Below are positions 1,428 through 64,000 of a DNA stretch of 64,000 nucleotides, in pieces. The DNA comes from an uncultured Gammaproteobacteria bacterium (GTDB lineage Bacteria; Pseudomonadota; Gammaproteobacteria; HyVt-429). The position numbers were made by a program, and so were the translations under genes. Numbering within the stretch: position 1 is the first letter of the stretch; the number at the start of each line of letters is the position of its first letter. The stretch covers positions 12,997 to 76,996 of the forward strand of contig CAMYOD010000039.1 of the NCBI GenBank assembly GCA_947259975.1, read 5' to 3'. The notes below the pieces were generated by a model. It saw only the letters and a program-made list of their open reading frames with translations. It had not been told where the DNA came from and ran no database searches.

Positions 1428-3993
<2,566 letters not shown>

Positions 3994-59942: not shown

Positions 59943-59977
59943 GCGCTGCCGCAACTTAAAAGCAAGATTGACCGGAA

Positions 59978-60008
59978 GGGGTGGCGTTGCCACCCTTTTC
60001 TTTTTGTG
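59978..60008 (+). terminator. Rho-independent terminator downstream of cytochrome c4
   Basis: GGGTGGC-gtt-GCCACCC followed by TTTTCTTTTTG. Confidence 0.6.
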
Positions 60009-60027: not shown

Positions 60028-61014
60028 TCACTTCTGATCCTCGAGTACGTCGCCGAGCGGACTGCGCACGGCGTTACCACCGCGCTTCAGCACATGGGTG
60101 TAGACCTGGGTGGTGCGTATATCCTTGTGCCCCAATTGCTCCTGCACGGTGCGGATATCCATACCGCGCTCCAGCAGATGGGTGGCGAAGGAATGCCGCA
60201 GCGTGTGGCAGCTGGCGGGCTTGTCGATCCCGGCACGGCGTAACGCCTGTTTGATCGCCTTTTGTACCGAGCTTTCATCCATATGGTGCCGACGGGTCAC
60301 GCTGCTGCGCGGATCGACGCTGCGGCGCGCGCTGGGGAACACATATTGCCAGGCCCAGGAGACGCCGGCATTCGGGTACTTGCGTGCCAGCGCATGGGGC
60401 AGATACACCTCACCGTAGCCGTCGGCGAGATCCTTTTGATGCGTGTTCTTCACCGACTGCAGATGCCGCCGCAGTGGAATCGTGATTTCGTCGGGCAAGG
60501 TGACGACACGATCCTTGCCGCCTTTGCCATCGCGCACCAAGATCGCGCGGTGTTCGAAGTCGATATCCTTGACCCGCAGCCGCAGGCATTCCATCAAGCG
60601 CAGTCCGGAGCCGTAGAGCACACACGCAACGAGCCATTGCTTGCCGTCGAGACAGCGAAACAGACGCCGCACTTCCGCCTTCGACAACACGACCGGCAGG
60701 CGTTGCGAACGCTTCGCGCGGATCGCGTCTATGTCGCCCAGCGGCCGGTCAAGCACCGCCTTGTAAAGAAACACAAGCGCGTTCAGCGCCTGATTCTGTG
60801 TTGCCGCGGCGACCTGATCGTGCACCGCGAGGTGGCTCAGAAAGCGTTCCACCTCGGGTGCACCCATTTCCTCCGGGTGCCGCCGGTTGTGGAAACGTAT
60901 GAAGCGCCGAATCCAGTAAAGATAGGCCTGCTCGGTGCGGATACTGTAGTGGCGTAGACGAATGGCGGCGCGTACGCGCGCCAGAAAGGGCGAGGGCTTT
61001 CCATGCCGGTTCAT
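60028..61014 (-). CDS. intI: Integron integrase IntI (tyrosine recombinase)
   Basis: …[26 protein letters not shown]…[17 protein letters not shown]… plus the IntI-specific insertion [50 protein letters not shown]. Catalytic …[39 protein letters not shown] is present. Start taken at the [11 protein letters not shown]; the ORF-track start at 61056 is a TTG. Confidence 0.92.
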
Positions 61015-61131
61015 GATTCCGTTCCCTTGAATCCGTGGGAAATTTAAAGTAAACAAGTAGTATTAGGGTGTCAAACCCAATCGTTTCCGCGTTTGCGCGG
61101 AAGGCAGGACCGCCAACCACAGGAGGCCGGC

Positions 61132-61275
61132 ATGCATAAGCCGTTGTCTTTAGGGAAGAAGCAGACAAGGACACGCCAAAACCAGGGCACCAAACCTCAC
61201 CCTTCCCCGCGTGTTATACGGAATCTTTCCGTAGTACAACACGGAAACTTTCCGTCTACTCAATGTTATACGTAA
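61132..61275 (+). CDS. Candidate short attI-embedded ORF (47 aa) with strong SD, possibly coupling translation of the first cassette
   Basis: AGGAGG at 61121-61126, 5 nt before the ATG at 61132 (MHKPLSLGKKQTRTRQ…). Its stop TAA at 61273-61275 lies 5 nt before the ATG of the first cassette ORF, which has no SD of its own. Confidence 0.3.
   Translation: MHKPLSLGKKQTRTRQNQGTKPHPSPRVIRNLSVVQHGNFPSTQCYT
61205..61271 (+). other. attI-like recombination site
   Basis: Two GTTATAC core sites (61213-61219 and 61265-71) and two 13-bp direct repeats GGAAWCTTTCCGT (61220-32 and 61243-55), which are putative IntI binding sites. The cassette array begins after G/TT at 61265/61266. Confidence 0.55.
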
Positions 61276-61280
61276 TAAAA

Positions 61281-61724
61281 ATGAATACCACTTTTCTAAT
61301 TAAAGTAACGAGATTTCTCAGTGGTGTACTTCTTGCAATTCTATATGTAAAACTTACTACTGTTTTTCTTACCCAATATACAAAGTTAATGGGTAATTTA
61401 GTGAGTGATGCCGATAAAATATTATCCGTACTTGTTGCTGTAACACTATCATGTGTCATCATTTTTGCAGTGAATTACTTCATCATAAAAGCATCACCAG
61501 TTCTTTTAGGCATCTTTTCGATGGTGTGCGCATTTATATTTTTCTACATAATAAAACCACAAGGAGATTTTGCCTACACAGTCGCCTTGATATATAGCTC
61601 ATTTAGGCATCTGCATAGCACGGTAGCGTTTATCTTAATATTATCCACTCCCATAATTACTGGAATAATAATGAAAAATACGTATAACAAGGCGCTCCAG
61701 CCGACCGCTGAACGCGGCGGCTAA
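61281..61724 (+). CDS. Integron cassette 1 ORF: hypothetical small membrane protein
   Basis: AT-rich 147-aa hydrophobic ORF (MNTTFLIKVTRFLSGVLLAILYV…) whose C-terminal tail …LQPTAERGG is encoded within attC1. Confidence 0.55.
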   Translation: MNTTFLIKVTRFLSGVLLAILYVKLTTVFLTQYTKLMGNLVSDADKILSVLVAVTLSCVIIFAVNYFIIKASPVLLGIFSMVCAFIFFYIIKPQGDFAYTVALIYSSFRHLHSTVAFILILSTPIITGIIMKNTYNKALQPTAERGG

Positions 61725-61739
61725 GCTCATACGTTAGGC
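61681..61739 (+). other. attC site of cassette 1
   Basis: cgTATAACaa-ggcgctccagccgaccgc-tgaa-gcggcggctaag-ctcatac-GTTAGGC, with an imperfect internal palindrome AGCCGACCGC/GCGGCGGCT. Confidence 0.6.
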
Positions 61740-61769
61740 ATTCAATGAATCAAACAAAGGGGACAGTTA

Positions 61770-62474
61770 ATGGCACGTAAAAAGAAAGCTGCTGCTAAGA
61801 AATCAGCCAAATCAGAAGCAAGTAAACGTAGCTATATGTCACAAGCCGATGTTCCAAGCTCGTCCCTTGAACAGGCGCTTCGTATACCCCGTGCAATAGC
61901 AGAAAATTATGCTGGCGGTCCTGTCACACCTCTGCAACTTGCATCAGCTCTAAATATGGCTCCAACATCTGGACCATTTAGAAGTCTATGCGGTGCTTCA
62001 ATTGCTTATGGGCTTACTGAAGGTGGTTACAATGCTCAAGAAATAAAGCTAACTCCATTAGGTAAGCGAGTCGTAAAACCCTTAGAAGAAGGCGATGACA
62101 TTGTCGCAAAACGTGAAGCTGTCCTAAAGCCACGTGTAACGGGTGAATTTCTGAATAAGTATAATGGCTCACCCTTGCCAAGGCACGATATCGCAATGAA
62201 CGTTCTTGAAGAAATGAATGTACCATCTGATAAAACAGAGTCAGTTTACACCTTAATTCTTGACAGTGCCGAAGCAGTAGGCTTATTACGAGATATTAAA
62301 AACAAGCAGTATGTAGATCTTACAGGTGTTGATCAATCGGAAAATACTGAAAACGAAGGTGAGGAAGTCGATACGCAAGATACAGATGAAAGTGATAATG
62401 AAATTGAAACAACACAAACAAGTACAACACACAAATCAACAGCGCCAGCAGGTGCCATGTTGCAGATGAAATGA
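61770..62474 (+). CDS. Integron cassette 2 ORF A: hypothetical protein with Lys/Ala-rich N-terminus and acidic C-terminus
   Basis: Own SD (AAAGGGGA, 6 nt spacing). 234 aa, MARKKKAAAKKSAKSEASKR…GGPVTPLQLASALNMAPTSGPFRSLCGASIAYGLTEGGYNAQEIKLTPLGKRVV… followed by a DQSENTENEGEEVDTQDTDESDNEIETT acidic tail. Confidence 0.55.
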   Translation: MARKKKAAAKKSAKSEASKRSYMSQADVPSSSLEQALRIPRAIAENYAGGPVTPLQLASALNMAPTSGPFRSLCGASIAYGLTEGGYNAQEIKLTPLGKRVVKPLEEGDDIVAKREAVLKPRVTGEFLNKYNGSPLPRHDIAMNVLEEMNVPSDKTESVYTLILDSAEAVGLLRDIKNKQYVDLTGVDQSENTENEGEEVDTQDTDESDNEIETTQTSTTHKSTAPAGAMLQMK

Positions 62475-62737
62475 AATTGATAGATTCTGAAGCGAATGAA
62501 CACGTAATAATTAACCCAAATGTTTTGATCGAAATTGGCGCCGCAATGGCGCTTTATGGTCGAAGATTCATTTTACTCGTAAAGGAAGGCGTAGACTTGC
62601 CTTCAAATCTCCAGGGACTTTACGAAGTCCGTTACAAGGGTGAAACGCTGGACGGTGAAGCAACAATAAAATTATTGGAAGCAATCAACGATATTAAGAA
62701 TAATCCATTACCAGATCGATATAAAAGCGATGCCTAA
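62471..62737 (+). CDS. Integron cassette 2 ORF B: hypothetical 88-aa protein overlapping ORF A (ATGA)
   Basis: MKLIDSEANEHVIINPNVLIEIGAAMALYGRRFILLVKEGVDLPSNLQGLYEVRYKGE…. Its stop lies inside the R'' box of attC2. Confidence 0.5.
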   Translation: MKLIDSEANEHVIINPNVLIEIGAAMALYGRRFILLVKEGVDLPSNLQGLYEVRYKGETLDGEATIKLLEAINDIKNNPLPDRYKSDA

Positions 62738-62803
62738 CAATGCGCTCGTTCGGACGCAAACTCCGCTGCGCTTCGTTTGCGCCGCACAGCTTAAACGTTA
62801 GGT
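62732..62803 (+). other. attC site of cassette 2
   Basis: GCCTAACaatgcgctcgttcggacgcaaactccgctgcgcttcgtttgcgccgcacagcttaaacGTTAGGT. Confidence 0.65.
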
Positions 62804-62825
62804 GGTGTATGGCGGGGAAAAGGGC

Positions 62826-63314
62826 ATGACGCTCATCCGTGACAACAGTCTCATAGCTATGGCCGTCGCACTGACAGGTGGGGCTCTATTGCACTTTGGC
62901 GAAAAGATCCTTTTCATCTTGCTTTCGCCCTACACCATCGCCGTAGGTGACAGAATCTTCAATGATAAAGGGATGACGGAGCTGTGGGGGGTCACGTTCT
63001 TGTTTAATGTAGTGGCCTTCGCTATATCCGCATTAATCGTCTCGTTAGTGGTCGCTATGACCCTACGCGCTATTCTTGCTTACCGAGACATGTTTTACCC
63101 GCTTATCTCTGTCGTGCCGGTCGCACTCCTGGGGTATTGGTGGTTCCTCCATGATTCGGCAGGTGCTGTTGAGGGCATGCCATCCGAGCACATCGCCACG
63201 CTGCTGGCCCGGCCGATTGTGCTCATGGCTATCTTTCTATTTCTAGCGTGGCGATTTCGAAAAGAAACACCACCTAACAATTCACTCCAGCCGACCGGCT
63301 CCGCCGGCGGCTGA
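62826..63314 (+). CDS. Integron cassette 3 ORF: hypothetical membrane protein
   Basis: SD GGGGAAAAGGG precedes the ATG at 62826 (MTLIRDNSLIAMAVALTGGALLHF…). 162 aa with 4-5 TM segments; the tail …NNSLQPTGSAGG is encoded within attC3. Confidence 0.55.
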   Translation: MTLIRDNSLIAMAVALTGGALLHFGEKILFILLSPYTIAVGDRIFNDKGMTELWGVTFLFNVVAFAISALIVSLVVAMTLRAILAYRDMFYPLISVVPVALLGYWWFLHDSAGAVEGMPSEHIATLLARPIVLMAIFLFLAWRFRKETPPNNSLQPTGSAGG

Positions 63315-63329
63315 GTTCAACCGTTAGGC
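63272..63329 (+). other. attC site of cassette 3 (same attC family as cassette 1)
   Basis: ACCTAACaattcactccagccgaccggctccgccggcggctgagttcaacc-GTTAGGC. It shares ctccagccgacc…gccggcggctgag with attC1. Confidence 0.65.
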
Positions 63330-63371
63330 TCATTAAGCAAGGATTGTAAAATTATCAACCTCCTGCCAATT

Positions 63372-63968
63372 ATGGGCGTCCTCTTCGGAGTCGCCTTTTT
63401 AGGTGCCGCGACTGCCTGGTATCCTGGCGGATATCAATGGGGCGAACACACGATTTCCGCCCTATTTCAAGGTACAACACCGAGCGGAGTGGCGAATCCT
63501 GCAAGACCTATTGCTGTGATGGGCGTTCTCACAGCCATGAGCGGCATCGCGTTACTCTTCCACCTTGTATCGCGGTGGACTTCCCGATCATTTCAAAAGG
63601 GAGCAATCCAGATCGCCGGCATCGCTGCAACTGTGTTCGCGTCACTCACAGTTGTACTGCCGCATGATCTGATGGTCAGCCTAGCTCTCCTCTGCTTCGT
63701 GGTTGCCACCGTCGCTATCCTCAACGTACTCTATAATGAATGCGAGATAGTGCTATTTGCACTCGGCATCATGTTCCTAGCCCTGGAATTCAGTACAGCG
63801 GTTATGTACTTCGGCAACGTTTGGCTTCAATTCCTTCCAGTGGCGCAGAAGGCAGCATTGGTGCTCATCGGAATGTGGCTCTTCATAGTACTACACCGGC
63901 TAAGCACCCAAACAACTCGTTCGTCAATTCCAGAGAAGCGCGAAGATATTAAAGACTCGAAATATTGA
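63372..63968 (+). CDS. Integron cassette 4 ORF: hypothetical membrane protein
   Basis: 198-aa hydrophobic ORF (MGVLFGVAFLGAATAWYPGGYQWGEHTISALF…) followed by GCCTAAC at 63976. Confidence 0.55.
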   Translation: MGVLFGVAFLGAATAWYPGGYQWGEHTISALFQGTTPSGVANPARPIAVMGVLTAMSGIALLFHLVSRWTSRSFQKGAIQIAGIAATVFASLTVVLPHDLMVSLALLCFVVATVAILNVLYNECEIVLFALGIMFLALEFSTAVMYFGNVWLQFLPVAQKAALVLIGMWLFIVLHRLSTQTTRSSIPEKREDIKDSKY

Positions 63969-63975
63969 AAACAAA

Positions 63976-64000
63976 AGCCTAACAACTAAGTCAACTAGGA
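63976..64000 (+). other. attC site of cassette 4 (5' part; truncated by window end)
   Basis: GCCTAACaactaagtcaactagga…, an R''-box-like start. Confidence 0.35.

Follow-up and report, generated by a model that had tools for sequence, protein, structure and literature searches.

A complete, probably chromosomal integron with an intact integrase, at least four cassettes and a dyad element beside its attI crossover

Does the far end of this 64,000-nucleotide stretch of DNA (hereafter, the window) hold a genuine integron and, if so, of what kind is it and could it still be at work? The initial annotation had read positions 60028–64000 as an integron in a chromosomal setting, with an intact IntI integrase, an attI site and at least four cassettes richer in AT than their host, and this core reading holds throughout that interval. 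The locus combines features by which complete integrons are recognized, namely a recombinase carrying the integron-specific extra domain, at least two attC sites in the same orientation, circularly permuted cassettes and an attI site adjoining intI. We are highly confident that it represents a complete integron platform beside a housekeeping flank, on a GC-rich and probably gammaproteobacterial chromosome, with at least four cassettes in its array.

The integrase gene intI (60028–61014, minus strand) is an intact, single open reading frame (ORF) encoding 328 amino acids from its ATG. The protein contains the Pfam domains Phage_integrase and Phage_int_SAM_4 and scores 492.6 bits against TIGR02249, the NCBIfam subfamily model for 'integron integrase', which has a cutoff of 265. 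Residues 8–321 align with the Vibrio cholerae integrase VchIntIA (PDB 2A3V; E = 1.8e-107). In this alignment the catalytic R, K, HxxR, H and Y are all conserved, the VYTHV motif is present, and a 21-residue stretch constituting the integron-specific insertion aligns to VchIntIA ALKEKYPNAPYEFRWHYLFPS (VchIntIA residues ~205–228). IntI is an integron integrase and it is intact; the model score and the full-length alignment to 2A3V bear out the complete catalytic region and extra domain that had been annotated. Its nearest relative among GTDB representatives is 74% identical and belongs to uncultured Gammaproteobacteria. Comparisons with related integrons drew on 80 loci that encode relatives of the window IntI.

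The simplest alternative is that there is no integron here, and that a XerC/D-type recombinase merely lies beside unrelated palindromic repeats. The generic tyrosine-recombinase fold of IntI agrees with this view, and nothing else does. The XerC and XerD equivalog models reach only 152 bits against cutoffs of ~330, whereas the score for the integron-integrase model is far above its cutoff, so the generic identity that would have overturned the initial annotation fails. The repeats decide in the same direction, as set out below: covariance models applied in both directions identify them as attC sites, and they bound circularly permuted cassettes. We regard this alternative as refuted and give it next to no probability.

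Taking each junction at the G of a GTT core, we located G|TT junctions at 61265, 61733, 62797 and 63323, which delimit cassettes of 468, 1064 and 526 bp and a fourth, partial one of 677 bp. The cassettes had been given as 468, 1064, 526 and more than 670 bp, each bounded by attC sites; these figures are confirmed, the fourth now being >677 bp. Three attC sites are complete in the window, all on the plus strand: attC1 (61682–61739, 58 nt), attC2 (62732–62803, 72 nt) and attC3 (63272–63329, 58 nt). A fourth, attC4, begins at 63977 on the same strand with GCCTAAC and is cut by the window end; its R'' complements the start of cassette 4 over 8 nt.

Rfam holds no attC family, and its sole match was a chance snoRNA. 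We therefore built two covariance models, R1 from the three window attC sites and R2, which leaves out the window, from 54 of the sites that R1 matched in other integrons. Applied to the 80 independent intI loci, R1 gave 90 matches. For 88 of them both position and orientation are those expected of cassette sites, upstream of intI and on the minus strand; there were no R1 matches downstream of intI in these loci. In the reciprocal direction, the plus-strand matches of R2 in the 64 kb are exactly the three window sites, attC1 at 62.2 bits (E = 4e-14), attC2 at 52.8 bits (E = 1e-11) and attC3 at 68.8 bits (E = 7e-16), and the sole further match is a weak antisense of attC3. The attC candidates are thus recovered by covariance models in both directions. 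Folding of the bottom strands was compared with that of shuffled sequences: attC1 (z = −3.2) and attC3 (z = −5.7) fold more strongly and show the sought extrahelical bases as a bulged T and G on the 3' half, and the fold of attC2 is weaker (z = −1.5).

If these sites bound true cassettes, the start of each cassette after its upstream junction should complement its own R'' and not the R'' of the preceding attC. The complementarity to the cassette's own R'' is perfect over 10, 9, 12 and 8 nt for cassettes 1–4, as against complementary runs of only 4, 6 and 6 nt with the adjacent attC, and the four-by-four matrix of comparisons is dominated by its diagonal. The 5' end of each cassette thus complements its own R'', the hallmark of a circular cassette. 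Base composition agrees with these boundaries: GC content falls from ~0.62 to 0.35–0.53 exactly at 61.0–61.2 kb, cassettes 1–4 having values of 0.355, 0.422, 0.534 and 0.50 against 0.62 in the rest of the window, so that the cassettes are indeed AT-richer than the host (36–53% against 62% GC).

The attI site (61201–61268, minus strand) has its crossover at the G at 61265, 251 nt from the intI start. We place the crossover there because the start of cassette 1 complements its own R'' and because the same cassette start recurs in one of the related arrays (L084, discussed below). It follows that the GTTATAC with which attI had been said to end is present at the junction, but that only its G belongs to attI, TTATAC being the start of cassette 1. 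In the mechanism we propose, IntI would act on a circular cassette, joining its attC, as a folded bottom strand, to the double-stranded attI at G|TT 61265. Each new cassette would then take the first place in the array, with every cassette read in the direction away from intI.

What do the cassettes carry? Cassette 1 (61266–61733, plus strand; 468 bp, 35.5% GC) contains an ORF (61281–61724) for a 147-residue multi-pass membrane protein with four to five hydrophobic segments. Its two homologues, 88% and 82% identical, both reside in metagenomic cassette arrays (L084 and L085) and have near-identical attC sites. The L084 copy, whose upstream junction is visible, starts with the same TTATACGTA directly after the G of another attC. 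Because cassette 1 is found in three array contexts with the same attC, we interpret it as a mobile unit. The cassette preceding this copy in L084 (3678–4883) encodes a metallo-beta-lactamase-fold protein that matches the Anti-Pycsar Apyc1 family and is a possible anti-defence gene in the form of an integron cassette.

Cassette 3 (62798–63323, plus strand; 526 bp) contains an ORF (62826–63314) for a 162-residue membrane protein with at least three hydrophobic segments; the ORF takes up the whole cassette, its end lying within attC3. A search of 5.8 billion proteins returned no relative of this protein but itself, making it an orphan. Cassette 4 (63324–64000, plus strand; >677 bp, cut by the window end) encodes a 198-residue membrane protein (ORF 63372–63968) with about six hydrophobic segments, for which there are 175 cluster representatives at E ≤ 1e-3. 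A DUF998 match was found in 11 of 36 aligned relatives, and the cassette 4 protein itself has no such match; by its relatives it appears distantly DUF998-like. Membrane proteins had been annotated in cassettes 1, 3 and 4, and the hydrophobic segments of all three agree. The accompanying statement that no cassette has homology recognizable by inspection does not survive, as relatives exist for three of the four (1, 2 and 4), leaving cassette 3 as the only orphan.

Cassette 2 (61734–62797, plus strand; 1064 bp) had been taken for a two-gene unit; we find instead one disrupted gene. ORF A (61770–62474, plus strand) encodes 234 amino acids with a winged-helix-like N-terminal domain, and a fragment in another frame of the same strand (62444–62737) encodes 88 amino acids corresponding to the C-terminal part of a TIR-like domain. 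Nearly all of the 653 relatives of ORF A are ~380 residues long and carry at their C terminus the CAP12/Pycsar-type TIR-like domain PF10137, matched over profile positions 1–118 of 119. The window fragment covers positions 69–118 of 119 only, and no single frame of cassette 2 encodes the whole TIR-like domain, whether judged by PF10137 or by tblastn. With the relative P0002 as query, tblastn, together with a DNA alignment, places residues 1–232 in one frame and 287–383 in another, with residues 233–286 (KVFITHGK...MRACG) missing. An intact copy lies in a cassette of the array L082 with the same ends (G|TTAGGCAT ... ATGCTTAAC...GTTAGAT). That cassette measures 1243 bp; the window copy, at 1064 bp, is shorter by 179 bp, a length not divisible by three. 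A single out-of-frame deletion of 179 bp thus accounts for both the lost half-domain and the change of frame. Judged from its sequence, the cassette 2 gene is dead and cannot encode a working system; the deletion would have killed a gene that joined a winged-helix-like sensor to a TIR-like effector. The same L082 array also holds an IS3-type transposase pair (HTH_Tnp_1 + rve; 2546–3768).

Intact relatives of cassette 2 match the PADLOC candidate system PDC-S35 (E = 4e-16), which makes the winged-helix plus TIR-like family a single-gene defence candidate. Other intact relatives (L081 and L083) sit outside arrays and have no attC. Phage-defence integron cassettes (BRiCs) have likewise been reported both within cassettes and outside integrons (bioRxiv 10.1101/2024.07.02.601719). 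The predicted structure of the N-terminal domain of ORF A (predicted local distance difference test, pLDDT, 85.5) consists of two helical winged-helix-like modules, and a fold search with it gave only weak matches (E ≥ 0.07), to SelB winged helices and to repressors of the MarR/DtxR type; on the model, this domain may sense nucleic acid. Seven relatives of ~175–260 residues (P0014, P0047, P0056, P0084, P0085, P0093 and P0100) have no TIR-like domain, P0056 ending early within it. This pattern suggests that the effector half has been lost repeatedly in the family, and some cases may be artefacts of contig ends.

The copies in other arrays indicate that cassettes 1 and 2 have moved between integrons. 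Is the integron itself mobile? An integron borne on a transposon, plasmid or genomic island, and not a resident chromosomal one, would explain why its cassettes are so mixed in GC content (36–53%), why cassettes 1 and 2 are common to unrelated arrays, why the attC sites, at 62–75% identity, are as heterogeneous as in mobile integrons, and why there is no synteny with relatives: by tblastn, none of cytochrome c4, engB and polA occurs within 10 kb of intI in the 80 related loci, the nearest relative being only 74% identical, and the same search found no match in these loci to the window cassette proteins, hence no shared cassettes. Against it stands the flank. The 60 kb on the intI side encode PolA, an EngB-like GTPase, a di-haem cytochrome c (cytochrome c4), CorA, MscS, DctP and CsgG at host GC content, and this side of the window contains no transposase, tni, plasmid or mobility genes and no tRNA. 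A strong hairpin resembling an intrinsic terminator, with 12 pairs and then a T-run, lies at 59974–60000 at the end of the cytochrome c gene, 28 nt away from the stop codon of intI, and marks the left edge of the inserted integron. Nor does IntI belong with the integrase of class 1 integrons, since it scores 354.2 bits against the IntI1 equivalog NF011946, below the cutoff of 435. We consider a mobile element improbable.

The integron is thus probably chromosomal by context, its one visible side placing it outside mobile elements. The window gives no basis for grading it as sedentary. The initial annotation had seen such a sign in the likeness of attC1 and attC3, but these two sites are only 75% identical. 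Pairwise identities among the three complete sites, a small sample, are 62%, 75% and 62%, below the similarity of ~80% above which the sedentary type is recognized. Moreover, the attC type spans many phyla, its consensus being common to integrons of Competibacteraceae, Thermomonas, Methylomirabilis, Gallionellaceae and Chthoniobacterales, among others. The source contig of 77,124 bp leaves room for at most ~13 kb of array past the window end, and an exact-pattern scan of metagenome contigs with the window end gave no match.

Having assigned the platform to a chromosomal setting, we considered its expression and regulation. A tentative integrase promoter, PintI (61046–61074, minus strand), has a −35 element TTGACA (61074–61069), a 17-nt spacer and a −10 element TACTTT (61051–61046); it was read directly from the sequence and fails consensus scans. 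It overlaps what looks like a decayed LexA box, TACTACTTGTTTACTTTA (61045–61074), beside a conserved TTGACA. Among relatives, a LexA box with at most one mismatch occurs in 25 of 77, compared with 4% of random windows, and many of these boxes overlap PintI. On the cassette side, a leader ORF of 47 codons (61132–61275, plus strand), preceded by an AGGAGG Shine–Dalgarno (SD) sequence at 61121–61126, spans attI and stops 5 nt before the ATG of cassette 1. The leader peptide shows no conservation in the relatives. The attI1 site of class 1 integrons carries the short ORFs ORF-11 and ORF-17 (PMC8876359). By analogy, the leader ORF could couple translation into whichever cassette is first.

Four observations weigh against a complete and functional platform. 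One of the four cassettes, cassette 2, is a pseudogene. An exact-pattern scan of metagenome contigs found no instance of the same attI with a different first cassette, and hence no direct sign of recent activity. The 150 nt upstream of intI contain no CTGT-N8-ACAG LexA box with up to two mismatches, so that SOS control of intI, which the initial annotation had put up for checking, is not borne out. Finally, the plus strand of 60750–61290 contains no sigma-70-like cassette promoter (Pc) with at least 8 of 12 matches, although a weak or non-sigma-70 promoter is possible. Such observations would be expected of a stalled relic, a platform that looks intact but is no longer regulated or active and whose cassettes decay neutrally: the deletion in cassette 2 is out of frame, the LexA box that a third of relatives possess is absent with a decayed look-alike at the equivalent place, no Pc is recognizable, and the insertion site is common to none of the 80 relatives. 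Decay of this kind is hard to square with an intI that is uninterrupted and keeps every catalytic residue, with four junctions and R''/R' complementarities that are perfect, and with three of four cassette ORFs that are intact and fill their cassettes. We judge the relic unlikely, if the most serious of the alternatives, and favour the complete integron, for which present-day recombination activity is plausible.

Does anything at this locus go beyond an ordinary integron? Only one feature might, and it lies within attI. The initial annotation had noted two direct repeats there; both copies are present, but they are not simple direct repeats. The motif CGGAA-N3-TTCCG occurs exactly twice in the 64 kb, at 61219–61231 and 61242–61254, and each copy forms an ACGGAA-N3-TTCCGT palindrome inside a larger dyad. 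From the crossover inward, the element consists of an L box, GTCTACT (61254–61260), the palindrome ACGGAAACTTTCCGT (61241–61255), a centre (61233–61240), the palindrome ACGGAATCTTTCCGT (61218–61232) and an outer box, GTTATAC (61213–61219). The dyad occupies ~45 bp beside the crossover, its distance from the crossover AAC being a constant 10 nt.

At least 25 related integrons have a dyad of this architecture, in every case placed between crossover and intI, but its sequence varies among them; the window attI shares the architecture with 24 related loci. A set of 13 attI regions, of relatives and of the window, that we picked by eye aligns without gaps from the crossover. RNAalifold applied to these 13 regions predicts one helix of 13 pairs (columns 15–28 with 37–50), with compensatory double changes in all 13 pairs. 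In this set 82% of the cells pair, compared with 59.5% after shuffling (none of 500 shuffles reached 82%) and 30–47% when the partners are slid against each other, and the covariation score is 0.645 against 0.245. As a guard against the hand-picking, we built a covariance model, R3, from the set and ran it on all 86 sources (990 kb). It scores 65.8 bits on the window attI and found 12 further loci. All of its plus-strand matches lie 60–320 nt upstream of intI, the few minus-strand matches fall at the same places, reflecting the dyad, and there are no matches elsewhere in the 86 sources. Pairing in the 12 new loci reaches 81% of cells, against 24–52% when slid, with the caveat that an alignment fitted by the model leans towards the structure.

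Read in the sense of intI, the pattern is YAAC-N4-AGTAGAC-[X4-N3-X'4]-GT-N8-AC-[X4-N3-X'4]-GTCTAYY-CCGC, where the two units of any one integron have an identical four-nucleotide arm, X4, which changes from integron to integron. The arms read GGAA in the window, L026, L029 and L018, GTCA in L008 and L021, AGCA in L042, GCCA in L041 and L064, GCCG in L031 and CCCA in L009; some members (for example, L002 and L012) have the long inverted repeat only and lack the internal palindromes. Representative dyads are found at 61213–61260 of the window, 5429–5496 of L008, 9762–9829 of L042, 646–713 of L041, 9872–9939 of L026 and 1820–1905 of L018. The element is anchored to the crossover and not to intI, as the distance from junction to intI varies among loci from 121 to 362 nt. 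Two of these loci, L026 and L029, lie on one contig of a Chthoniobacterales metagenome-assembled genome (CBDCJE010000002.1, 1,655,294–1,721,814), which carries two intI genes ~45 kb apart; their attI elements are near-identical and have the GGAA arms seen in the window.

Three simple identities for the dyad were considered and set aside. As an attC-like site it was rejected, its GTT...AAC boxes facing outward, the reverse of attC, and as an intrinsic terminator it was rejected for want of a T-run after it. An RNA element was judged unlikely, as nothing in Rfam matches and the mismatched pairs show no wobble bias (11 G.T and 15 A.C), which argues against an RNA or single-strand-specific role. 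The account we lean towards, without giving it an even chance, is that the dyad provides accessory binding sites in double-stranded form, for IntI or for some other dimer, and that these would aid recognition of the cognate attI. A cruciform or hairpin read by its shape is a somewhat less probable account, some other role is less probable again, and an RNA leader structure comes last, as improbable. We found no IntI residues that track the GGAA arms, in a test with too little power to count for or against IntI as the protein that reads them. A search of the full-text literature found no description of such an attI dyad, and papers beyond its coverage may hold one. We tentatively advance, as a possibility still doubtful, that it is a previously undescribed accessory attI module of this integrase clade, acting either as a determinant of own-attI recognition or as a cruciform or hairpin read by shape as attC is. 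Knowledge of how integrases recognize their own attI has been described as lacking (PMC4792948), and the covarying dyad is a concrete candidate for such a determinant.

Set against known systems, the integron is one more environmental chromosomal example of a class already known in great numbers, and would be detected by standard software. Like class 1 integrons (IntI1/attI1), it combines a divergent attI and a one-way cassette array with an integrase that bears the extra domain, and its attC1 and attC3 resemble a widely shared attC type. At least 5000 plasmids contain the attI1 sequence exactly as we used it, and it gives box spacings of 19 and 32 nt; the outer GTT-type box of the window lies 52 nt from the crossover, compared with 51 nt for DR2 (direct repeat 2) in attI1. 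The SD-led short ORF across the window attI likewise resembles ORF-11/17 of attI1 (PMC8876359). It differs from class 1 in that IntI falls below the equivalog cutoff, in the absence of a Tn402/IS (insertion sequence) context and of a recognizable Pc, and in the accessory region of attI, which is a dyad with two palindromes in the window and two direct repeats in attI1.

With the Vibrio cholerae superintegron, the home of VchIntIA, the locus has in common its chromosomal setting, the full-length alignment of IntI and a majority of cassettes without known function. The attC repeats of Vibrio are highly uniform, whereas those of the window are only 62–75% identical, and the window has no LexA box. 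The third comparison concerns the cassette 2 gene and the BRiCs, PDC-S35 and CAP12-PycTIR. The window copy differs from these in that it lacks the TIR-like domain's N-terminal half and carries a frameshift; its intact relatives match PDC-S35 and the full PF10137, inside and outside integrons. The window shows a defence-candidate cassette that has been inactivated and of which intact versions are in circulation, both within other arrays and at sites outside integrons. This accords with the recent proposal that cassette arrays serve as reservoirs of phage-defence genes whose continued activity comes at a cost.

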